Source: Chiloscyllium plagiosum (Eukaryota). Taken from it: DNA of 64,000 bases. Location of the stretch: contig NC_057719.1 in NCBI RefSeq assembly GCF_004010195.1, positions 16,111,744 to 16,175,743 of the forward strand, written 5' to 3'. Position numbers and translations under genes: made by a program. Shown here piece after piece: positions 4,318-60,651 of this stretch. Positions within the stretch are counted from its first letter, which is position 1, and each line of letters starts with the position of its first letter. The notes beneath the pieces are model-generated. The model saw nothing but the letters and a program-made list of their open reading frames with translations. It did no database searches and was not told where the DNA came from.

Positions 4318-5201
4318 CGCAGCAGGTCAGGCAGCATCCAAGGAACAGGAGAATCTACGTTTCGGGCATGAGCCCTTCTTCAGGAATGTTTGCCCAGCAG
4401 GCTAAGATAAAAGGTAGGGAGGAGGGACTTGGGGGAGGGGCGCTGGAAATGCGAAAGGTGGAAGGAGGTCAAGGTGAGGGTGATAGGCCAGAGTGGGGGT
4501 GGGGGCGGAGAGGTCAGGAAGANNNNNNNNNNNNNNNNNNNNNNNNNNNNNNNNNNNNNNNNNNNNNNNNNNNNNNNNNNNNNNNNNNNNNNNNNNNNNN
4601 NNNNNNNNNNNNNNNNNNNNNNNNNNNNNNNNNNNNNNNNNNNNNNNNNNNNNNNNNNNNNNNNNNNNNNNNNNNNNNNNNNNNNNNNNNNNNNNNNNNN
4701 NNNNNNNNNNNNNNNNNNNNNNNNNNNNNNNNNNNNNNNNNNNNNNNNNNNNNNNNNNNNNNNNNNNNNNNNNNNNNNNNNNNNNNNNNNNNNNNNNNNN
4801 NNNNNNNNNNNNNNNNNNNNNNNNNNNNNNNNNNNNNNNNNNNNNNNNNNNNNNNNNNNNNNNNNNNNNNNNNNNNNNNNNNNNNNNNNNNNNNNNNNNN
4901 NNNNNNNNNNNNNNNNNNNNNNNNNNNNNNNNNNNNNNNNNNNNNNNNNNNNNNNNNNNNNNNNNNNNNNNNNNNNNNNNNNNNNNCCTCCTTCCACCTA
5001 TCATTTCCAATGCCCCTCCCCTAAGTCCCTCCTCCCTACCTTTTATCTTAGCCTGCTGGACACACTTTCCTCATTCCTGAGGAAGGGCTCATGCCCGAAA
5101 CGTCGATTCTCCTGTTCCTTGGATGCTGCCTGACCCGCTGCGCTTTTCCAGCAATACATTTTCAGCTCTGATCTCCAGCATCTGCAGTCCTCACTTTCTC
5201 C
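4318..5201. mobile_element. Penelope-like element with inverted terminal repeats spanning an assembly gap (N 4523-4986)
   Basis: The two arms are reverse complements of each other. A 17-bp direct repeat TGGAGGTGAGAGTTGAG at 4301-4317 and 5202-5218 is the TSD. Hammerhead motifs at about 4353-4388 (-) and 5071-5110 (+). Confidence 0.85.
5071..5110 (+). ncRNA. Candidate minimal hammerhead ribozyme (family A)
   Basis: UUC-CUGAGGA-A-GGGC-UCAU-GCCC-GAA-ACGU-C-GA. Confidence 0.6.
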
Positions 5202-19925: not shown

Positions 19926-20014
19926 CTTTAATTTTGCTGTCATCTCCTTTGTTGTCCTTTGAAAATGATTTACAGCAATTCTTTAGAAAATCTGCTGTGA
20001 GCCCCAGTATGACA
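19926..20014 (-). CDS. TC2N: TC2N exon encoding the conserved N-terminus (VILGLTADFLKNCCKSFSKDNKGDDSKIK)
   Basis: Acceptor ttgcttag and donor G|gtaggg; 89 nt. LTADFLKNCC aligns with the mammalian TC2N N-terminus MATEFIKSCC as recalled. Ends in phase 1, compatible with the next exon. Confidence 0.8.
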
Positions 20015-20617
20015 CTAAGCAACAATCCAACGAAAACTGGAATAAGCAACCAAAGCGATGCTGGAAGAGATTGGGATGTTAAGTTTTAAGAGAAATGCAG
20101 TGTAAGCTATGCTTGAGCATTTGCTCAATATAGGCTTACAAAGAGAATCATATTAGCAAGTCTATGGAGAACCAGCAATGAGGAATGAGCTAGGGCAAGT
20201 GGAGTCAAAAGGTCGCTCTTTCAAGAAGTCAGAACAAGCTTGAAGAGTTTGTGTTAATTTACTCTTCTCAAGTTAGTGTTTTTTTCCATTGGGTGATGCA
20301 TCTATTCTACATTACCTGTTATTCATAAACAGTTTAGTGGAAATTTACTTTTCTTTTATTTTCTGAAGACACTAAGCTTTTAGTTCAGGTGATAGGTTTC
20401 AAGGATATTATTCATTTATATTCAAAGAGAACTCTCAACTTCACTGTCAATGGAGTGTATAAAATAATTGATCTGATTTAATTAGTTCTACATCCTGCCA
20501 GAATGAAAAAGTTATGCAGAATAGATGAGTTCACAAATGTCCAATAGCTATGTTCAGGTGAACAAATATATTGTTCTGCACAATGAAATAGATAACATGA
20601 GGTATATACACCATCAA

Positions 20618-22012: not shown

Positions 22013-24251
22013 CTAATTTAGTAATAGGCTGATGTTCAAGTTATATAATTCTGATATCTAATTCATAAATATGCTTAATTTTAATGCCTCAAGAAAGAAA
22101 TCAATACAAATCCTGTAGTGTGTAACTGTGATTAGAAAATACATCAATATTTATAATTGGTCACAAAGCACTTCACGAGGCACCTAATAACAGGAAAACG
22201 GGATGGCATCTAACCCAGATTACTCTTCCAGGTTATTCTAGAGCAGTGCAAAGAGTGAGACACTGAACTCGTAACAAACATTTCCCTCATTAAAACCGAA
22301 CTCCTAAGTCTTAGTGGAATCCAGCTTTGATATCAGTCACTTACCCGGTGAAGGTGTAACCATCTGTAGACCTGCCATTCTCCCAGATACTCAGACTCCA
22401 AGACTTTTTGGAATTATTTTTAAAGTAAGTTTTGAGAAGATTTGTAGCTCAGGTTGAGGTTCTGGATGTATTTTTAAAGTTATGAATGTTCTCTGCATAT
22501 CACAGGACACCTGTATAAATAAAAGGAATGTTTCTTTATTTTCAAAAAAAGCTTAAGTAGTTTTCAAAGGCATTGAGTATTGTATTAGAAAATCATAAGA
22601 TTAATGTAATCCAATAACTAAAATACAATTGCAAAATAATAAAATGCATATTGTTCAAACTGGAACGGACACCACAGGGACCAGCAACAATGAGTTATTG
22701 CTCTGTATACAAAAAAAAATTACAGTACACAATACATATTAAATTAAATTCAATTGAAGTCAGTGATATTTTGTGTTAGAACCCATAATAAATCAAGGGA
22801 AAATATCCTTTAGAAATTTGCACTTAAAAAGCAGGTGCTTCACTCAACTGGTATTTATCTTTGGTAGCAGTTCTGAAGAAGAATCACATAAATATTAACT
22901 CTGTTCACTCTCCAGAAGATGACAGAACAGCTACATTGCTCCAGAATGTCACGTTTAGCTTTGGATTTCCAGCTTGTCCAGTACATTTTTTTTATTACAG
23001 GAGTTACCTTTGCTGCATTGTAAGATTTAAAATCCTTGCCATGCTGCAATCATAGGTTGGAATTCCAATGCAGTACTGAGTGTAATTCGTGGTCAATAGT
23101 ACTGGTTAGGTCAGACATTGAACTAGTGAGATAAGGCTCCAGTTTAAGTAGCTGTTAAAATCTGAAGACATTATTCAAAAAGAAATACATTCTCGCTGCA
23201 TCCTGGCAACATTACTCCCTAAATGGACAGAGTTGAAAATCAACATCAAATACCAGTTTTTCTTATTATTTTTCCCACAGTTTCACTAAGTGACTGCTAT
23301 ATTTGATCTGTACAACATTATTACATTACAAAGCATAACTGAAGTGGGGTGGTGGTGATGAGCAAGAAGTAAGACATTGATTGACATCTTCATTGGGTCG
23401 TGGATTGTTTCATTATGACTTCATTTGTTTAATTTAATTCTTTGTTATTATATGATGTTCTTGGCTATATAATGCAAGCTGAGAGCATTCCGTATCTTCA
23501 GTTTCCAGAACACACAAGTAATCCAATGATGCTAATTAGTCAAGCGAAATGTTCTCTTTATCCAATCATTCATTTTCTTACAATGGCTTCAGTATGCAGC
23601 CAAAGAAATTTAATGCAAAAAAAACTCAAGATTTTGCTCTTGCGTTTAATGTTTCAGAACATGTATATCAATGTCCTATCAGTCTTCATTCTTTGCTGGT
23701 TTTTGCCGTCACTTCCCAAGATAGTAGGTGAGAGCTGAACTGTTTAGAGTTCAACCAAAGGCTGGTGTTTCAAGGATTTAGAAATTCAATAAAATTGGAA
23801 AGTTTGTGGAGTAAAATTACATTTTTATAGGTTTAGTACAGAATCGTATTTATCTAACATAAATGCATAGCAATAAGGACTTATCTCAAGGAGACCTACA
23901 AGTGCCCATCATTACGAATCCAGGCTGATACTGATTCTAATTAACAGTACTGGCTTTGGTAAGTGGTCAAAGAATATATACATTGACCTTTTTAGCTATG
24001 GACTTGCCTTGGGTGAGAAAAACTCATTAACTCATTTAACCATGAGCTTGCCTTTGTGGAAAAAAAGGCTGTTAATATTTTAATGGAAGTGGCAAAGGCA
24101 CTTGCCAAAGGTAGCTGAAAACCTGTTTGAACAGAACAGCAAGGTCCAATATTTTGCTAAATATTATGCCAAGCAAACATGTCTTAAAAATCAATCTAAT
24201 AATTGTTCAGTTAGCATAACAATTGTTATTGTACACAAATAAATGTTTTTT

Positions 24252-25120
24252 TAGTAGACAGCGAAGGTTTCCTCAGAGTGCAACAGGACTTTGATCAGAT
24301 GGGCAAATGGGCCGATAAGTGGCAGATGGAGCTTAATTTGGATAAATGTGAGGTACTGCATTTTGGTAAGGCAAATCAGGGTAGTTCTTATACACCTAAT
24401 GGTAAGGCCCTGGGGAGTATTGCTGAACAAAGAGAACTTGAGGTGCATGTTCATAGTTCCTTGAAAGTACAGTTGCAGGTAGACAGAGTTGTGAAGAAGG
24501 CATTTGCCACACTTGCCTTTATAAGTCAGTGCATTGAGTATAGGAGTTGGGAGATCATCTTGCAGCTGTACAGGACATTGGTATGACCACTTTTGGAATA
24601 TTGCATTCAGTTCTGGTCTCCCTGTTATAGGAAAGACATTGTTAAACTTGAAAGGGTTAACAAATATGTTGCCAGTGTTGGAGAGTTTGAGGTATAGGGA
24701 GAGGCTGAATCAGCTGGGGCTATTTTCCCTGGAGCATTGATGACCTTGTAGAGGTTTATAAAATCTTGAGGGGCATGGATAGTGTTAAGAGTCAAGCTCT
24801 TTTCCTCAGGTTAGGGGTGTCCAATACTAGTGGGCATAGGTTTAAGGTGAGAGGGAAAAAATATAAAAGGGACTTAAGGGGCAACTTCTTCACACGGGGG
24901 TGGTACGTGTAAGGAATGAGCTATCAGAAGAAGTGGTGGAGGCTGGTACAATTGCAGCATTTAAAAGGCATCTGAATTGGTATATGAAAAGGTAGGGTTT
25001 AGAGGGACATGGGCCAAAAACTGGCAAATGGAACTAGATTAATTCAGGATATCTGGTCAGCATGGATGGGTTGGACCGAAGGGTCTGTTTCCCTGCTGTA
25101 CATGTCTACGACTCTATGAC
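24252..25120 (+). mobile_element. 5'-truncated CR1 (HER1-like) LINE 3' end
   Basis: ORF WADKWQMELNLDKCEVLHFG...LYRTLV; ends in a CTATGACT-type tail. Confidence 0.93.
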
Positions 25121-37130: not shown

Positions 37131-38165
37131 GGGAGAAAGTGAGGACTGCAGATGCTGGAGATCAGAGTCGAGAGTATGATTCTGGAAAAGCACAGCTGGT
37201 CAAGCAGCATCGGAGGAGCAGGATAATCAACGTTTCGAGCATAAGCTCCTCATCAGGAATGAGGCTTGTGGGGCCAAGGGGGCTAAGAGATAAATGGGAG
37301 GGGGTGGGGTTTGAGGGCGGAGTTTCTGTCCTTGTTGTGGTTGGAGGGGTGGGGTTTGAGGGTGGAGTTGTGGGAAGTGGAGGGCATCATCAACCATGTG
37401 GAAGGGGAAACTGTGGCATTTATAGAAGGAGCCAATCTTCTAGGTTCTGTGGTGGAACTGGTTCTCCTGGGAGAAGATGCAGCGGGGGCAAAGGAATTGG
37501 AAATAAGGGATAGCATTATTCCCAATTCCTCTGCCTCCACCGCATCTGCTCCCAGGAAGACCAATTCCATCACTGAACACAACCATATATCCTCCTTCCC
37601 TCCTGGAACCTTCCCCTGCCACCACAAGAATTGCAAAATCTGCGCCCACACCTCCCCCCTTTACTCTGTCCAAGCCCCCAAAGGAGCCTTCCACTTCCAT
37701 CAGAGATTTACCTGTACTTCCTTACACATCATTTACTGTGTCCATTGCTCCCGATGTGGTCTCCTCTACATTAGGAAGACAGGACACCTACTTGCGGAAC
37801 GCTTCAGAGAACATCTCTGGGACACACACACAAAAAAACCCCACTGCCCTGTGGCTGAATACTTTAACTCCCCCTCCCAGTCCCATAAAGACATGCAGGT
37901 CCTAAGCTGCCTCCATTGCTAATTCCTTACCACCCCACACCTGGAGGAAGAATCCCTCATCTTCCATCTTGAGACTCTCCAACTACATGGGATCAATGTG
38001 GATTTCACCAGTTTCCTCATTTCCCCTCCCCCCACATTATCCCAGATCCAACCTTCCAACTCAGCATCACCCTCATAACCTGTCCTACCTGCCCATCTTC
38101 CTTCCCACCTATCCGATCCAACCTTCTCTCCGACCTATCACCTTCACTCCCACCTCCATTGTACT
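37131..38165. mobile_element. Penelope-like element remnant: minus-strand terminal repeat and RT piece joined to plus-strand GIY-YIG region
   Basis: ORF 37311-37922 reads PCHHKNCKICAH...FTCTSLHIIYCVHCSRCGLLYIRKTGHLLAERFREH. Hammerhead motif at about 37226-37260 (-). Confidence 0.9.
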
Positions 38166-39234
38166 CATAGGACTATCTTGGCATATATACTGGGAGCAGC
38201 AGGGTGAACAGAATCTTCCACAACATGCATGGGATTGTAACTCAGAGTAATAGGATACCTCCTAACCTTCAAATTAATAATGGCCATGATTTGTGAGATG
38301 GTGTATTATCGAGTCAGAGAATATTGGTCAGCCTTAGGTAGCTTGCTCAGAATGAGTAAAGGTTAAATTTATCAGGAATATGGTGAGGGTGGAGGATTTA
38401 ACAGTTAAAAAAATATGCTTTTTAACCACACTTATGTAGAATTTTTATGATCTCGGGAGTTTCAAATATCTTAAAACCTTCTAATTTCTGTAGATGTGTG
38501 GTCATTGTTGAAATGCAGAGTAAGGAAGCCAATTCGCAGACAGAACATTCCCACCTCAAGGTAAATAACCTGATCATCTGTTTCTAGTGACATTGCTTGA
38601 GGGATAAATATTGGCCAGCACACCAGGACCTCCTTCAATCTTTGAATGCAATCTTCCGAGTTTTTCCAAGAGAGTATATGAGGCTTTGCTATAATGTCTC
38701 ATCTAAAAGACAGGTTGTTAGTGTAGGCCTTGGCCTTATTACTAGACTATTAATCCAGTGACCCAAATAATGTTCTGGGGTCCTGGGTTTAAATCCCATC
38801 ATGTCAGGTAGTGAAGTTTGAATTCAATAAAAATCTGGAATTAAGAATCTAATGATGACCATGAAACCATTGCTAATTGTCAGGAAAATCCAGTTGGATC
38901 ACTAACGTTCTTCAAGGAAGGAAGCTGCTGGTCTGAGCTTCATGTGTCTCCATGCCCATGCATTGTGGTTGAACCTTAAATGTCCTCTGAGCAATAGGAA
39001 TGGGCCTAGCTGTAAGTGTAGGCCTAGCCAGCAACACCCTAATCCTGTGAACAATCTTTTTTATAAAATGGTTATGGCAAAAGTGGTTTTGGTACTGGAT
39101 TAGCCAATAATGGGGTTGCGATTTCAAAGCTCAAATTGAATTGAATAAGTCACTTGTTCATCACTTATGCCTATGAGTGTCTAGTTTGGCAATGTCACTG
39201 ACAATCAGCACTCAATGTAAAATAAGCCTGAGAT

Positions 39235-41505
39235 AAACTTGACCTACTCTTGGGAAAAAAGGCAGGGCAGGTGACTGAGGTGTCAGTGGGGGAGCACTTT
39301 GGACCCAGCAACCATAATTCTATTCGTTTTAAAATAGTGATGGAAAAGGATAGACCAGATCTAAAAGTTGAAGTCCCAAATTGGAGAAAGGCCAACTTTG
39401 ACGGTATTAGGCAAGAACTTTCGAAAGCTGATTGGAGGCAGATGTTCGGAGGTAAAGGGATGGCTGGAAAATGGGAAGCCTTCAGAAATGAGATAACAAG
39501 AATCCAGAGAAAGTATATTCCTGTCAGGGTGAAAGGGAAGGCTGGTAGGTATAGGGAATGCTGGATGACTAAAGAAATTGAGGGTTTGGTTAAGAAAAAG
39601 AAGGTATAGACAGGAGAGATCGAGTGAATCCTTAGAAGAGTATAAAGAAAGTAGGAGTATACTTAAGAGGGAAATCAGAATGGCAAAATGGGGACATGAG
39701 ATAGCTTTGGCAAATAGAATTAAGGAGAATCCAAAGGATTTTTGCAAATATATTGAGGACAAAAGTGTAACTAGGGAGAGAAGATCAGCAAGGCGGCCTT
39801 TGTGTGTAGCCACAGAAAATGGGGGAAATACTAAATGAATACTTTGCATCAGTATTTACTGTTGAAAAGGATATGGAAGATATAGACTGTAGGGAAATAG
39901 ATGGTGACATCTTGCAAAATGTCCAGATTATAGAGGAGGAAGTGCTGGATGTCTTGAGATGGTTAAAAGTGGATAAATCCCCAGGACCTGATCGGGTGTA
40001 CCTGAGAGTTCTGTGGGAAGCTAGAGAAGTGATTACTGGGCCTCTTGCTGAGATATTTGTATCATCAATAGCCACAGGTGAGGTGCCGGAAGACTGGAGG
40101 TTGGCAAATGTGGTGCCACTGTTTAAGAAGAGCGGTAAAGACAAGCCAGGGAACTATAGACCGATGAGACTGACGTTGGTGGTGGGCAAGTTGTTGGAGG
40201 GAATCCTGAGGGTCAGGATGTACATGTATTTGGAAAGGCAAGGACTGATTAGGGATAGTCAACATGGCTTTGTGCATGGGAAATCATGTCTCACAAACTT
40301 GATTTTGATGAAGTAACAAAGAGGATTGATGAGGGCAGAGCAGTAGATATGATCTATATGGACTTCAGTAAGGCATTCAACAAGGTTCTCCATGGGAGAC
40401 TGATTAGCAAGGTTAGATTTCATGGAATAAAGGGAGAACTAGCCATTTGGATACAGAACTGGCTCAAAGGTAGAAGACAGAGGGTGGTGGTGGAGGGTTG
40501 TTTTTCAGACTGGAGGCCTGTGACCAGTGGAGTGCCACAAGGATCAGTGCTGGGCCCTCTACTTTTTGTCATAAATGATTTGGATGTGAGCATAAGAGGT
40601 ACAGTTAGTAAGTTTGCAGATGACACCAAAATTGGAGATGTAATTGACCTCAGAGTACAACAGGATCTTGACCAGATGGGCCAATGGGCTGAGAAGTGGC
40701 AGATGGAGTTTAATTCAGATAAATGCAAGGTGCTGCATTTTGGGAAAGCAAATCTTAGCAGGACTTATACACTTAATGGTAATGTCCTAGGGAGTGTTGC
40801 TGAACAAAGAGACCTTGGAGTGCAGTTTCATAGCCCCTTGAAAGTGGAATCGCAGGTAGATAGGATAGTGAAGAAGGCGTTTGGTATGCTTTCCTTTATT
40901 GGTCAGAGTATTGAGTACAGGAGTTGGGAGGTCATGCTGCGGCTGTACAGGACATTGGTTAGGCCAATGTTGGAATATTACCGTTGCAAAGATGTTGTGA
41001 AACTTGAAAGGGTTCAGAAAGGAATTACAAGGATGTTGCCAGTGTTTGAGGATCTGAGCTAAAGGGAGAGGCTGAACAGGCTGGGGCTGTTTTCCCTGGA
41101 GTGTCGGAGGCTGAGGGGAGACCTTATAGAGGTTTACAAAATTATGAGGGGCATAGATAGGATAAATAAACAAAATCTTTTCCCTGAGGTCGGGGAGTCC
41201 AGAACTAGAGGGCATAGGTTTAGGGTGAAAGGGGAAAGATATAAAAGAGACCTAAGTGGCAACTTTTTCACGCAGAGGATGGTATGTGTATGGAATGAGC
41301 TGCCAGAAGATGTGGTGGAGGCTGGTACAATTGCAAAATTTAAGAGGCATTTGGATGGGTATATGAATAGGAAGGATTTGGAGGGATATGGGCCGGGTGC
41401 TGGCAGGTGGGACTAGATTGGGTTGGGATATCTGGTCAGCGTGGATGGGTTAGACCAAAGGGTCTGTTTCCATGCTGTACATCTCTATGACTCTATGACT
41501 CTATA
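39235..41505 (+). mobile_element. CR1 (HER1-like) LINE, 5'-truncated, frameshifted ORF2
   Basis: KSPGPD, WRLANVVPLFKK, SQHGF, YMDFSKAF, GVPQGSVLGP and KFADDTK motifs; CTATGACT-repeat tail. Confidence 0.96.
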
Positions 41506-44639: not shown

Positions 44640-45560
44640 CTCCTGATTCTGTGGCTTCTTTTTAGAAGCATGCCGGGCTCACATACATCCCAAAGGTCAC
44701 TACCGAAGGTATTTTGTTCAAGAGAGAGAGAAGATGACACAAACTCACCTCTCTGTTTATACTGAACTCCGGTCTCCAGAATGGTCCTGGGCTTCCTCAT
44801 GCAGCTCCTTTCCTGGTCCTGGCAATTCGGGTTCACAGCCGAAGGTAATGTAGGGTCAGCTCCCTTCCGACGGATCCTATCGCAGCCGGCACTACAAACT
44901 GAGGAGGAAACTCGCTCAACTCCTACTGCCCTTTTCTCAAAATTAAATCACAGAGGAATTGTTTTGAGCAGGGTGCATCTTTCGTTGGTGTTGTTGTTTC
45001 GAGAATTTGGGACTTAAAATTAGCCTTGGACTGCTTTCTGTTAATTGTAATCGGTTCCAGCCCCAGTGGAAGTTCAGGCTGACAAGGTTACCTGTGTGAA
45101 GTAAGGACAGAGAAAAGTGAACTTCTCTGTAATTTTCGCCCACGCCGGCTCCTCAGTGCAGTTCCTGATTTCTTGCCCCTGTCACAGGTTGCCCTTGGTG
45201 TTTCCCAGCTGCTGGCTCTGTCACAAGCCCCATCTTCCCTCCCCGGAGCTCAGCAACCAGCACTCACCCCGATAGGCAAACCTCACACTGTATCTTAACC
45301 AGTACCAAGCGTCCGCTGGGTCCTACAGCTCCCCATTGTCTTGTAAAACTGATCCATTAACCCTCAAGGAACCTGTCGCTTGCGTCTTTTTCTCTCGCTA
45401 TCAATCACCCTGGGTTTTCTTCTGGTGCAGTGATGTGTACCTACCTCTAAACTTGGAAGCATGGATTCGTGTCCCACCAGCTCAGGACGTGTATCAGCAG
45501 GTTTATGAGAAAATATCGAAAACGTCCTTACACGTAACATTTAGTTTGACTCATCAAAAA
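44640..45560 (-). promoter_or_regulatory. CpG-enriched non-repetitive segment, probable TC2N promoter and first exon (splice donor after 44749)
   Basis: CpG and GC content are locally raised in an otherwise CpG-depleted window. A strong minus-strand donor GAG|gtgagt lies at 44749/44748, upstream of the TC2N coding exons on the same strand. Confidence 0.45.
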
Positions 45561-48500
45561 TAAAATCACTTTCAAATTGCACGTTTACCAGCCTCTAGCA
45601 AGCATCTTTAGACAATTCTCTCAAGTATTTGCATTGCAATTTTTTTAAAATTAAAAAAAAAGTTGCCGTGCAAAACTCGAATATTGGCAATACTTCGCAT
45701 CAAGATTTCTCTGATTACTTATTAATTCAATTTCATTTTGTTCAGATAAACATTTATCAAAAGTTGAATAAGTTCATTTATTATAGGAACCGGTTGGTCA
45801 CTTAACTCACTTGCACTAATTCACTGCCATGTTTATCCAAGACAAGAATGCACTTCAAAAGTCACCCGTTGATTGCCATAGAAGAATTATTCATACCATT
45901 AAAATCAATTGTTTTTTATTATTAATGCAGACATGCAGATATTCTCATGTTTTAGTTTTACTTTTGCAGATTTACTCTGTACAAGAAATTGAAAGGAAGT
46001 CAGTGGCAGAAAATAAAGCCTCAAAATAAATACAGGAAATGGAACAGGAAATCAGTTAATTTGAATATTTCTAAAACTCATGAGAATCCAAGAATGTAAA
46101 AGATTAGGGGAATTCAATGAGGTCTTCTAAAAGAAATAATTCAAGTTTAATAACAACGCATGAACATTTACAAAGTCTATAGTTACCACTTGCAATGGGG
46201 TCTCAGTTAATCCCAACATATATTTTGTTTTAATTGAAGTAACATTACAACACCCAATGCTTATAATTGTAGCACCATTCACTTATCTGCCACGGTGACG
46301 GTGATATATTAAAGATATTTGGAGATTATGCACATAGGAACATTTGTAACCAAATTTTTTTTAATTAACGTGCACTTTTTCAGATTACCAATATTGTAAC
46401 TCTATCTGTACACAGCTCCTATAATACCTTACATAGATGAGCACTAAAAAAAAACCCCTGAACACACAAATGGAATATGTCCACACTTTGTGCCTTTTTC
46501 AAAAAAAAACTCAGGGGATGGCCATTCCTGATTATTTGCCATGACAATACATTGACCAGTCAGAGTTGGCTTGGTTGCTTTGAATTTAAAAGAAAGTTAC
46601 TAAGTGAACTGTTTCTTCTGAATTTACCATGGTAACATCTCCACCAATCAGAGTCTACTTTCCAACCAATTAGCACCATCTTCTAATGCAGCATAAATTG
46701 TTGTTCCCTCTGAAATTTGGTGTTCTTACGATTCTGTCCTGATGAATACAAACTTTGACAGCATGCATCTTTTTCAGCTTTACTTAAAATCCTCTTTGCT
46801 ATACAATAAAGACTGACATAGAATTCACAGGAAAGAAATAGGTCATTCAGTCCAACGGATCTTAAGCTCCAAACAAATCTCCTCATGCATTACTTATCAT
46901 GTTTCAACCAGACCTTGGATGATGTTCCCCAAATTATAACAGGTTTAGACAGAATACCCTAAATTGTCCACTCCTGGATGAAGATGAATGAAATAGCTCC
47001 CTTTTATTCACCTGCCTCCCTTAGTTGGTCACAACAAGGTTAATTTACAAAGGGTCTTCTCCCTTGTGAATACATTTCTCCCAGACCAAATGGAGTTATG
47101 TTTTAAAAGGAACAAATTTTAGCAAGTTTACATGAGAAATAAAAGAGTAAGCTCACTAGTTATTAGAACTAGTGTGCATCGTTACAGAATAAGTACTTAT
47201 GTAAAACTAAAATTTCTTCTCTCAGAGGCTACTTTTCCAAAATTCTCTATCCCAGAGAGTTACAGAGGCTAGATCACTGAAAGTATTTAAAGAGAAGGTG
47301 GATAGTTTTAAAATATTGAGGAGTTGAGGACTATGAAGAGCCATGATTTTATAGAATGGTGGGTTGGGTTTGAAGGCTGAAGGTCTCACTTCTGCTTCTA
47401 TTTCTTATGTTCTTAGACATGAAAAGAAGTAAAGATAGAAAACATATACAAATAAATTAGAAATGAGAAGTCAATCTAATAAAAGATAAAAGTTGTACAC
47501 GTCAATCTCTGGGTTGTTCAGAAAGAGTAATTAATTCATCATTGATAGTTAAGCAGTTGATTTTGAGATTCTTGGATTTGCATATTAGTTCAAATTCTTT
47601 TGTCTTGTTTCCTTCTGACTGACTTGCTGCCTAGCTAGTTCTCAGCTCTCAGAACAAAAGAATCCTCCACATGCAAAGTAGGAGCGACTAATTGATTGTT
47701 CTTCAACTGTGACAATGTAATACATCAGCACTTGAATCCAGGCTAATACAAGTACCTCTGCCACAGAAACACACAATCTCCTCAGTTCAGTATCACACCT
47801 TCTTCCACCAGCATCTCACAGTCATTTTGTTTCCAACCTAAGCAGAATGTAGCTGTAACTCAGGTAATACTAAAAGGATTTATGTTCCACATTAGGAATT
47901 TTGGACCAATACCTAACATTAATTCAGGACCTTCGAAAAATACAAATTGAACAATTTTAAGTCTTTTCCTGCAGAAAATTAGTGACTTTAGTGCTGCATA
48001 CAGACTAAGCTTGTGTGCAATTCATTTGAATTCCTGACACTGCATTCCTGGAACAATGGGAGATCTTGAAAGAAGTTCTTTAATTTGGAAAAAATTTTTC
48101 TCAAGGATTCACCCATCAAAAAAACTTGTGAATTTATCAGTGGAATTTGGTAAAAGCCCTTTTTTAAAGGTATCACATAGCATCTATGTAATTTGTACTG
48201 TATTTCTTAGAAATCTTTGCTGTCCCAGGTGGAATAAGCACAGTTCTGGTTTATGTTTCTTCTTCTTGAGTTCTTTGCCCAAAGGCAGGTCTGACTAGGA
48301 TGGAGGCAATCCCAAAGCTATGTGAGACAGAATGGGAACCGAACCATGTGTTGTTGACCTCAATGTGATCCACAATGTCCATCTTGCCTGCATATAAGGT
48401 GTTTCGTTCCAAAGAGGTTACAGTTACAGAGTTTTAAGCTCCACCCAATGTATTGAAGTCTTAAGGACCTGGAATGGGAGAACAGCTCTGGATCCTGAAG

Positions 48501-56285: not shown

Positions 56286-57852
56286 TTGCCTTATTTCCAC
56301 CCAATACCTTTATGCTAGAGTTTACATTTCACACATTTTCCTGAAAGCACAAATAACAAGGGCACAATGTAAAAATGAGGTACTTACGCTGGAAAAGAGA
56401 AATTGTTTTCACTCGTCCTCTAACACAAAAAGGTACGTAGTTTGAGGAATAAGTCAGTGGGAAAGTTCACGACATTCACTAAAAAGAATGGCATAGACAA
56501 TGGATTTCTGAAATATTTAACTAGTGAGAATTGTGGAATTGATTTATGAAAATGAATGAGCTTTTTAATTCTGATAAAAACTTTCCTGTTCCTAAAATAT
56601 CAGGCAGTTTCATAACAACTGAAACAAATGGGAGTAAGTATAAATTCCAACACAACAGCTGAACCTGCATAATATCGACCTACTCTGTCAATATAAATTT
56701 GGCCTTCATTCCCTGTAGACTTTGGCACACATCCAAGGAATATCTTGATTGAATAGGAGGAGGAAGGTTTCAAGTATTGTCCAGACAGATTATCAATGAA
56801 CAACATTCTCTTTCCTCAGTTATTGTTTCTCCACATTGACACTGAAAATGAAAGCAACTAACAAGAATCCAGAGAATGTATATTCCTGTCAGGGTGAAAG
56901 GAAAGGCTGGTAGGTATAGGGATTGCTGGATGACTAAAAACATTGAGGGTTTGGTTACGGAAAAAAAGGAAACATATGTCAGGTATAGACAGGATAGATG
57001 GCACGGTGGCAGTGGGCGGCACGGTGGCACAGTGGTTAGCCTCCACATTGACACTGAAAATGAAAGCAACTAACAAGAATCCAGAGAATGTATATTCCTG
57101 TCAGGGTGAAAGGAAAGGCTGGTAGGTATAGGGATTGCTGGATGACTAAAAAAATTGAGGGTTTGGTTACGGAAAAAAAGGAAACATATGTCAGGTATAG
57201 ACAGGATAGATCGAGTGAATCCTTAGAAGAGTATAAAGAAAGTAGAAGTACACTTAAGAGGGAAATTAGGAGGGCAAAACAGTGACATGAGATAGCGTTG
57301 GCAAATAGAATTAAGGAGAATCCAAACGGTTTTTGCAAATATATTAAGGACAAAAGGATAACTAGGAAGAGAATAGGGCCCCTCAAAGATCAGCAAGGCG
57401 GCCTTTGTGTGGAGCCACAGAAAATGGGGGAGATACTAAATGAGTATTTTGCATCAGTATTTACTGTGGAAAAGGATATGGAAGATATAGACTGTAGGGA
57501 AATAGATTGTGACATCTTGCAAAATGTCCAAATTACAGAGGAGGAAGTGCTAGATATCTTGAAACTGTTAAAGGTGGATAAATCCCCAGGACCTGATCAG
57601 GTGTACCCGAGAACTCTGTGGGAAGCTAGAGAAGTGATTGCTGGGCCGCTTGCTGAGATATTTGTAAAATCAATAGTCACAGGTGAGTTGCCGGAAGACT
57701 GGAGGTTGGCAAACGTGGTGCCACTGTTTAAGAAGGGCGGTAAAGACAAGCCAAGGAACTATAGACCGGTGAGCCTGACCTCAGTGGTGGGCAAGTTGTT
57801 GGAGGGAATACTGAGGGACAGGATGTACATGTATTTGGAAAGGCAAGAACTG

Positions 57853-58074
57853 TTCAAAGTTTGTGAGAAGATTTGTAGCTCAGGTGCTCGTTGTTGTAGT
57901 TCCAGTTGTCAGTTTCAGCCGGAACCGGAAGCGGCAAATTCAAACCACTATAAATACCAGAGGAAACATCACAGAAGCGCTTTACAGGAGGCTCCCAAGC
58001 ACTGAGGATGTCACCTAGACAAGGGACGAAACGTCTGCAACACAAATTCCCAGCTCGGCGAACATAACCATAGC
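57853..58074 (+). mobile_element. Family-C PLE-like terminal repeat with TATA box and hammerhead motif, inserted in CR1
   Basis: TSD AGGCAAGAACTG at 57841-57852 and 58075-58086; TATAAATA then GCA-CTGAGGA-TGTCACC-TAGACA-AGGGAC-GAAACGTC-TGC. Confidence 0.8.
57999..58038 (+). ncRNA. Candidate minimal type-I hammerhead ribozyme (predicted GUC cleavage after 58035)
   Basis: CUGAGGA and GAAA core, stem I GCA/UGC, imperfect stem II, palindromic ACGU in place of stem III. Confidence 0.65.
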
Positions 58075-60651
58075 AGGCAAGAACTGATTAGGGATAGTCA
58101 ACATGGCTTTGTGTGTGGGAAATCATGTCTCACAAACTTGATTGAGTTTTTTGAAGAAGTAACAAGGAAGATTGATGAGGCAGAGTGGTAGATGTAATCT
58201 ATGTGGACTTCAGTAAGGCGTTCGACAAGGTTCCCCATGGGAGACTGATTAGCAAGGTTAGATCTCATGGAATACAGGGAGAACTAGCCATTTGGATACA
58301 GAACTGGCTCAAAGGTAGAAGACAGAGGGTGGTGGTGGAGGGTTGTTTTTCAGACTGGAGGCCTGTGACCAGTGGTGTGCCACACGGATTGGTGCTAGGT
58401 CCTCTACTTTTTGTCATTTACATAAATGGTTTGGATTCGAGCATAAGAGGTACAGTTAGTAAGTTTGCAGATGATACCAAAATTGGAGGTGTAGTGGACA
58501 GCGAAGAGGGTTACCTCAGATTACAACAGGATCTGGACCAAATGGGCCAATGGGCTGAGAAATGGCAGATGGAGTTCAATTCAGATAAATGTGAGGTGCT
58601 GCATTTTGGGAAAGCAAATCTTAGCAGGACTTATACACTTAATGGTAAGGTCCTAGGGAGTGTTGCTGAACAGAGAGACAGGTTCATGGCTCCATGGAGC
58701 TATGAGTGCAGGTTCATAGCTCCATGAAAGTGGAGTCGAAGGTAGATAGGATAGTGAAGGCGGCGATTGGTATGCTTTCCTTTATTGGTCAGAGTATTGA
58801 GTACAGGAGTTGGGAGGTCATGTTGCAGGTGTACAGGACATTGGTTAGGCCACTGTTGGAACACTGAATTTAATTCTGGTCTCCCTGCTATAGCAAGAAT
58901 GTTGTGAAACTTGAAAGGGTTCAGGAAAGATTTGCAAGTATGTTACCAGGGTTGGAGGATTTGAGCTACAGGGAGAGGCTGAACAGGCTGGGGCTGTTTT
59001 CCCTGGAAAGTTGTAGGCTGAGGGGTGACCTTATAGAGGTTTACAAAATTATGAGGAGCATGGATAGGATAAATAGACAAAGTCTTTTCCCTGGGGTCGG
59101 GGAGTCCAGAACTAAAAGGCATAGGTTTAGGGTGAGAAGGGAAAGATATAAAAGAGACCTAAGCGGCAATGTCTGCACGCAGAGGGTGATACGTGTATGG
59201 AATGAACTACCAGAGGATGTGGTGGAGGCTGGTACAATTGCAACATTGAAGAGGCATTTGGATGGGTATATGAATAGGAAGGGTTTGGAGGGATATGGGC
59301 TGGGTGCTGGCAGGTGGGACTAGATTGGGTTGTGATATCTGGTTGGCGTGGACGGGTTGGACCGAAGGGTTTGTTTCCATGCTGTACATCTCTATGACTC
59401 TATGACTCTATAACTCCTCGTGTTCAAACCCCTTCATAGTCTCATTTCTTCCTAACTCTGTGATCTCTTCCAGCACTACAATTGTCCAGAATTATACTTT
59501 TATCCAATTCTGGTCATCTTGTACATCCCCTTCCATTGGCATGTGCCTTCACTCTTCAACTGTGGATATCACTCTCAATGCATTTCCAAGTGTTTTTATT
59601 ACATCAAAACCCTCAAAAAAATTTTAATCAAGCTTTTGGTCATTTGGCCCAATGTCAATTTCTGAGTGATAACCTTCATGGAAGCACCTTGAGATGCTTT
59701 ATTAAATTAGAGGTTCTGTTGTTGAATTATCCTTCTCATGTCCGTGTGCTAACTCTGTTCCACCTGTTGTCTGCATATGGCCAAGACCTTCCTTTAAACT
59801 TCGCCGCTCTGCCACCATAATTTCCAGAGAATGAAAACCCATGTGGAAGTTAAAGCATGTCACTACATGAAGCTGACCATACAATTCTCCCAATGTGCTT
59901 GACAACATTACTTCCCGAAATAGCATCACCATTTGGAATCCGACTTTACGTAAAATATGCGCTGTTGCATTTGCCAACACAATAGTAGTCAATAAACTAT
60001 GGAGTAACTCACCATATGTGAAGTAGTTTACATAAAATGACATTTTTTTCTTTCCTAGTCACTCTGCCTGTTTTTGGTTTGCTTGCACACTTATGTTCAC
60101 TTCTGTATCCAAGCGGTATACATTGTACTAAAATAACAATATTCAATTTCCTCTGGTCCTCCACTTAATAACTCCCTGTTTACCACTACAAACCTCGCAG
60201 ATACTTTCCAATAACTATATTCTGTGTAGTTTTCATGTTTTAATCTGTACTCTTGTGTTCTCTTTTATTTCCACGGGCTTTTATATGATTTGTATTTAAG
60301 TCAAATTTATCACATTGTGTTCTAACTTATTTGTAATGCCTTCAAAAAAGTCATTGAGGTTTAACAAATATGATTATCCATTTCTAAATTCTGTTGGTTG
60401 AATCTTACTAAAATAGTTTTTCCTTACTTTCTTCCTGTAGCTTTCAAAATAAACAATTTAATCTGGGGATTGTTGACATACATCTTTTTATTAGCTTATT
60501 AAATGTACTCACTTCCTGGTTTCAAAGTCCTCTGGATTACTCATGGTATTGCAATAATCAGAACTGTATTTGCAACCAACATAATTCCCTCCTTACTGAA
60601 ATCTGCTACAAAATGATACTTTAGAAATTAGACAAAAGCTCCTTCCTCTTC

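Follow-up and report, generated by a model that had tools for sequence, protein, structure and literature searches.

Mammalian TC2N is presented, in passages of PMC7778556 and PMC6748156, as a tandem-C2 protein of the nucleus and cytoplasm, and a term search of the TC2N review PMC8674203 returned neither "transmembrane" nor "N-terminal". The synaptotagmin family, as the main text of PMC2823689 describes it, is defined by an N-terminal helix, a linker and tandem C2 domains, and also includes the anchor-less Syt16 and Syt17; according to the same text, vertebrate Syt16 exists with and without a transmembrane segment. Syt17 (B/K) binds membranes via acylated N-terminal cysteines, as stated in a passage of PMC6684635. 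The terms Tac2, TC2N, MTAC2D1 and shark have 0 occurrences in the main text of PMC2823689, the supplements of which may hold such sequences under another name. Here we find it very probable that TC2N of the shark Chiloscyllium plagiosum starts at an in-frame ATG (22378) in an exon joined to the acceptor at 20060, and that a CTG proposed earlier as its start, together with a neighboring CTC, are leucine codons of a predicted N-terminal anchor that likely existed in the ancestor and disappeared in bony vertebrates.

The window, i.e., the whole stretch of 64,000 nucleotides analyzed (contig NC_057719.1), carries the 5' part of the gene on its minus strand, the remainder of TC2N lying beyond the left end. 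The coding chain consists of seven exons, 22378-22345, 20060-19926, 18503-18312, 13619-13449, 12783-12698, 5979-5904 and 2271-2186, with GT-AG introns throughout and no stop. Its translation is identical at 260/260 residues to RefSeq XP_043553066.1 (P0008, C. plagiosum TC2N), the limits of the last three exons having been picked by best fit to that record, which includes the ATG leader and is named "tandem C2 domains nuclear protein", a name that gives no hint of an anchor. The second exon (135 nt, phase 1 to phase 1) was placed from the sequence and by tblastn. The third, which holds the TEDxLLSKLP motif, the fourth, where Met153 and Met154 are internal, the fifth and the sixth follow from the chain translation, and the seventh, in which C2A starts, from tblastn, the chain translation and AlphaFold2. 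A 464-base assembly gap (N) at 4523-4986 falls in the intron that separates exon six from exon seven, and the chain is complete regardless.

The first coding exon (22345-22510), recognized by tblastn, from the sequence and from the chain translation, contributes 34 coding nucleotides (22378-22345) that end in phase 1, and a GTAAGT donor follows directly after 22345. Its 5' limit is probably at 22510, where an AG (22512-22511) stands after a pyrimidine-rich tract. The start codon is the ATG at 22378-22376, flanked by A at -3 and G at +4; a TGA in the same frame (22393-22391) lies 12 nt upstream of it, and a second in-frame ATG, that of Met6, is found at 22363. When the longer exon 2 was used as a query, the 78 candidates included five shark TC2N proteins, all of which span the query in full; in a tblastn search of these five against the window, N-terminal residues mapped to 22378-22343 for three of them. 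Met1 is present in 25 of the 26 chondrichthyan entries, and the remaining entry is a fragment.

The first-pass annotation had begun the second exon at 20014, 46 nt further downstream, and stated that the gene has no ATG at the conserved start. From 20014 the earliest in-frame Met is indeed residue 153, in exon 13619-13449, and splicing from a donor at 44749 to 20014 does place an in-frame TAA just upstream; the absence of an ATG was nevertheless concluded because the upstream exon had been missed and the acceptor was wrong. The acceptor at 20060 fits instead. It is a CAG with the AG at 20062-20061, the first of three AGs in this stretch, with a 46-nt AG-free zone and a branch-like TTAAC motif at -22, and it matches the phase of the 22345 donor. 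The AG at 20016-20015 is the third, and no TTAAC-like branch motif was found within 45 nt of it. Joined to the donor after 22345, the 20060 acceptor is in frame, while the 20014 acceptor leads to a stop at codon 22. The TC2N frame is open from 20085 through exon 2, behind a TAA at 20088-20086, and the 29 open codons upstream of the CTC are strongly hydrophobic. An acceptor at 20036 (AG 20038-20037) would also be in frame, but no database entry supports it. In five probable RNA runs, 0.23 of the words were present, the expectation being 0.22 if the exon has 135 nt and 0.13 if it has 89 nt; this is a word share only, and we give it no weight. In C. plagiosum the 22345-20060 junction is probably used as the database gene models have it.

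Of the two readings offered by the first-pass annotation, an additional upstream coding exon or initiation at CUG, the former stands: the ATG at 22378 and the additional 46 nt amount to a 31-residue extension. Database models of 18 species, among them an NP_ record of Callorhinchus and the open reading frame P0019, contain such an upstream exon with an ATG in frame. The Callorhinchus accessions NP_001279089.1/AFK11637.1, which carry the leader, presumably derive from cDNA. P0019, an ORF of 506 aa that includes the leader, comes from contigs whose length does not exceed 3412 nt; as 260 codons extend over 20 kb in this window, a spliced transcript is implied. These records are indirect evidence of the leader in real transcripts. 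The leader, comprising Met1, the helix and Cys-Cys, is of equal length in 17/17 full-length leaders of sharks, rays and chimaera, where one entry was taken per species with a leader of 31 residues. In the alignment, protein conservation from sharks to chimaera runs 29 residues upstream of the CTG, to Met1.

As for the two codons themselves, the CTC (20001-19999) does pair with the bony-vertebrate Met1 in the alignment (human P0322) and encodes Leu32, a position occupied by L in 12, I in 4 and V in 1 of the 17 chondrichthyan leaders. The CTG (20007-20005), read within GTC ATA CTG G with A at -3 and G at +4 as had been noted, encodes Leu30 of the helix, which is leucine in 17/17 leaders; position 29 is V in 14 and I in 3, and position 31 is G in all 17. 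A purine at -3 and a G at +4 of the CTG follow from these residues, because the codons of I/V29 start with a purine and those of G31 with G. Based on window frequencies, the chance of such an in-frame CTG within 10 codons is about 2.5%, and that of any near-cognate codon in this context 12.5%. The CTG context is therefore barely beyond chance.

The hydrophobic codons correspond to a predicted transmembrane helix, Leu14-Leu32 (19999-20055, minus strand), with a Kyte-Doolittle 19-mer mean of 2.67. AlphaFold2, run on a 33-row alignment, places helices at residues 12-15 and 17-42 with moderate confidence (pLDDT block means of 57 for residues 11-20 and 72 for 21-30), followed by a low-pLDDT linker to about residue 235 and confident C2 domains at 240-501; Pfam likewise recognizes C2 in two stretches. 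Right after the helix, Cys40-Cys41 (19972-19977), located at the same position in 17/17 leaders, are candidate acylation sites. Residues 1-13 contain no K/R and residues 33-47 contain 3 K/R versus 2 D/E, a charge pattern which weakly fits an N-out topology. Both membrane insertion of the anchor and acylation of shark TC2N are predictions. The predicted helix Leu14-Leu32 conflicts with the description of the mammalian protein as nuclear and having no transmembrane segment. The gene model is already in RefSeq, whereas its reading as an anchored protein is undescribed in the open-access text searched, i.e., listings and the starts of abstracts, subscription journals being outside this scope.

Bony-vertebrate TC2N (Tac2-N; human NP_001122067.1 = P0322) is orthologous to the shark protein, with about 46-57% identity among the best 120 of 488 hits and common membership of a clade supported at 100/99. 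Both share the Cys-Cys pair, TEDxLLSKLP, the tandem C2 domains and a C-terminal WHxL-type motif (proteins of 17/17 leaders), but the bony-vertebrate proteins start at the Met aligned to shark Leu32 and lack the 31-residue leader with its helix. A Met before the Cys-Cys motif is found in 123 of 133 bony-vertebrate entries and is residue 1 in 102. We called an anchor where a hydrophobic 19-mer scoring at least 2.0 lay upstream of the conserved linker motif, in entry sets made up of the best 120 of 488 hits and three cluster look-ups. By this measure, it is present in 26/26 chondrichthyan entries (minimum 2.34; sharks, rays and a chimaera, representing 18 named species plus one entry assigned by similarity) and in 3 of the 131 scorable entries of the 133 from bony vertebrates. 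All three exceptions, and P0149 from a separate search (2.25), are sturgeon GenBank models. In these four (P0149, P0305, P0306 and P0309) a hydrophobic stretch precedes the conserved Met, so the absence of the anchor from bony vertebrates has possible exceptions. RefSeq sturgeon models and three other entries of that cluster are 495 aa long, and in those displayed the conserved Met is preceded by three residues.

In-frame N-terminal extensions before the conserved Met were also seen in the lizard entries P0073, P0319, P0112 and P0321 and in P0333 of the human cluster, the one from Zootoca being moderately hydrophobic (1.67). We considered whether a vestigial helix persists in bony vertebrates, but the upstream stretches of sturgeon, lizard and human were indistinguishable from control helices or shuffles, and the lizard and human extensions have no detectable homology to the helix of shark.

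The history of the anchor was approached through cyclostome and sturgeon relatives obtained in a profile search of 1.84 billion representatives. A predicted helix occurs in lamprey P0148 (annotated as synaptotagmin-6-like or uncharacterised) and in the sturgeon paralogue P0146, while the TC2N-like models of lamprey (P0141/P0277) and hagfish (P0143/P0279) are without it. In a tree of the last 300 residues (20 rows, careful mode; 30 rows of the larger set were left out), the TC2N clade, supported at 100/99, includes lamprey, hagfish, the sturgeon paralogue and jawed-vertebrate TC2N. The three cyclostome rows group at 99/94, and chondrichthyans (100/98) are sister to bony vertebrates (85/84). The branching order among the three deep TC2N branches is weakly defined, as is the sister group of TC2N, most outgroup rows being without names. 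This tree replaced a 50-row quick-mode tree that put chondrichthyans inside bony vertebrates.

A predicted helix is present in P0146, P0148, the chondrichthyans and most outgroup rows. Each of the three deep branches thus includes a helix, as do most outgroup rows, and this favors an ancestral anchor lost at least twice, the second loss being required by the helix-free lamprey and hagfish models, which speak against a simple single loss; these anchorless cyclostome models may be incomplete. We therefore regard an ancestral anchor that was lost in bony vertebrates as probable, and the "nuclear" TC2N of mammals likely descends from a membrane-bound ancestor. The converse course, in which cartilaginous fish gained the anchor by upstream extension of the frame from an older Met start, would agree with the hagfish and one lamprey copy that, like the bony-vertebrate proteins, begin just before the cysteine pair and have no helix. 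It also draws on the fact that sequence homology of the helix across clades is not demonstrable: for the helix alone, 4/41 unrelated control helices score above P0148 and the sturgeon upstream stretches rank 23-26 of 54, and homology of the lamprey and sturgeon helices to that of shark is inseparable from general hydrophobicity. Set against a gain are the helices of the lamprey and sturgeon paralogues inside the TC2N clade and of most outgroup rows, as well as the leader comparisons, in which the P0148 leader ranked 1 of 54 with the whole shark leader as reference (1 of 200 shuffles) and the leader of paddlefish P0026 ranked 1 of 54 with the first-exon peptide as reference (1 of 200 shuffles), both by a narrow margin. 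A gain would moreover require a Met-to-Leu change and a new exon, and we judge it unlikely.

P0148/P0285 represent the sea lamprey gene LOC116943175, whose leader is similar to that of rays, and the other lamprey copy apparently begins at a Met that corresponds to one inside P0148/P0285. In paddlefish P0026 (isoform X1), a 14-residue leader resembles the shark first-exon peptide and has no helix; it may be what is left of the former start exon, or the likeness may be due to chance. P0146 and P0282-P0284 constitute a second, divergent TC2N-like gene of sturgeons whose product has a helix at the N-terminus and a short linker, and among 3997 candidates P0146 had only itself as a relative at E 1e-30 or better, with none outside sturgeons.

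The anchored ATG form could be the main product of the shark gene and be accompanied by a minor anchor-less one, made by leaky scanning or reinitiation at the CUG or by alternative splicing. A candidate upstream ORF of 35 codons in the main frame (22498-22391), real only if the exon starts at 22510, stops 12 nt before the main ATG and could dampen its translation. Use of the in-frame AG at 20038-20037 would delete 8 helix codons, and according to the main text of PMC2823689, synaptotagmin genes commonly have splice variants that lack the anchor. Yet 0/26 chondrichthyan entries are without the helix, and the ATG of Met6 (22363) would catch leaky ribosomes first, which makes a minor form of this kind quite improbable.

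Farther upstream, the segment 44800-44749 with an ATG at 44800 and a candidate GTGAGT donor is supported in no protein examined. As a source of the main start it was rejected, the peptide from ATG 44800 beginning 0/26 chondrichthyan entries. Splicing to 22510 would yield an upstream ORF of 20 codons; with 20060 as the acceptor, the frame stays open from ATG 44800 and the result would be an alternative in-frame leader that retains the helix. The segment is possibly a 5' UTR exon near the promoter, and the several RefSeq accessions per single protein in other sharks suggest alternative 5' UTR exons. The adjoining kilobase (45001-46000) has raised CpG, with an observed/expected ratio of 0.55. Elsewhere in the window, self-repeats make up about 23% of the sequence, and broken retroelement-like reading frames with reverse-transcriptase-like motifs, recognized by eye, lie at 39200-41420, 57280-59330, 24215-24590 and 37287-37922.

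It is highly improbable that the leader represents a signal peptide that is cleaved off, or an artefact of annotation produced by read-through of an intronic pyrimidine tract. Some short bony-vertebrate fragments in the database (P0203, P0240) do have hydrophobic leaders resembling intron read-through, but the shark leader is of fixed length and conserved in amino acids over 18 species, its junctions are phase-matched and GT-AG, and it recurs in the NP_ record and in the ORF on transcript-sized contigs. Cleavage of a signal peptide would put the C2 domains in the lumen, and we know of no tandem-C2 relative in which they are found there. Initiation at the CUG at 20007, giving a product like mammalian TC2N, had been inferred from the A at -3 and the G at +4 and from a position two codons before the mammalian Met1, and Leu30 is invariant, but it keeps next to no probability and appears refuted at the level of the gene model, since a conserved in-frame AUG in good context (22378) and a second in-frame AUG (22363) lie upstream, conservation passes the near-cognate codon and covers the 29 residues before it as protein, the context is set by the I/V29 and G31 codons, and the "in-frame TAA" needs an acceptor out of frame with the ATG exon.

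With translation from the ATG at 22378, shark TC2N would be a single-pass signal-anchor protein whose short uncharged N-terminus lies outside the cytosol, an orientation shared with synaptotagmins. The Cys-Cys pair after the helix might be acylated and would be followed by a disordered linker and by cytosolic C2A-C2B domains without calcium ligands. Of the positions corresponding to the aspartates that act as calcium ligands in Syt7, 0/10 are acidic in the TC2N alignment (C2A and C2B loops, by eye); hence, a calcium-independent adaptor rather than a calcium sensor is expected, and shark TC2N may act as a synaptotagmin-like adaptor in trafficking or tethering. In the ancestor of bony vertebrates, the codon of an aliphatic residue on the cytosolic side of the helix, at its end, would have changed to ATG and provided a new start. 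The resulting protein would have been soluble, or tethered by its cysteines, and capable of nuclear entry.

Most work on TC2N now treats it as a nuclear oncogene or tumour suppressor; these results suggest that it should be grouped with the synaptotagmins and may be directed to membranes by its N-terminal cysteines. We tentatively propose, with slightly less than even confidence, that TC2N is an unrecognised, vertebrate-specific, calcium-independent synaptotagmin which kept its anchor in cartilaginous fish, while bony vertebrates lost it via a new AUG at the last helix residue and kept the juxtamembrane cysteines, so that mammalian TC2N would be an acylation-tethered trafficking protein like Syt17 and its nuclear pool would be derived. 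If this is true, mutating the cysteines or adding the shark leader could switch the nuclear pool of mammalian TC2N. The gene represents a natural experiment, since its product is predicted to be an integral membrane protein in cartilaginous fish (sharks, rays and chimaeras) but is anchor-less in bony vertebrates, where translation begins at the position that ended the former helix.

The solved structures nearest to shark TC2N, by sequence and by fold, are those of Syt1, Syt7 and Syt3, and matches in the ESM Atlas were generic synaptotagmin look-alikes only. By prediction, the shark protein has the architecture of this family, with an N-terminal transmembrane helix, a variable, poorly conserved linker and C-terminal C2A and C2B domains. 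On the other hand, identity in the C2 region is just about 21-26%, and TC2N lacks the acidic calcium ligands. Loss of an anchor has precedent in Syt16 and Syt17, which are likewise anchor-less tandem-C2 proteins, but these are different genes. Unlike them, TC2N would have lost its anchor at a defined node, in bony vertebrates, with the start codon placed at the end of the old helix.
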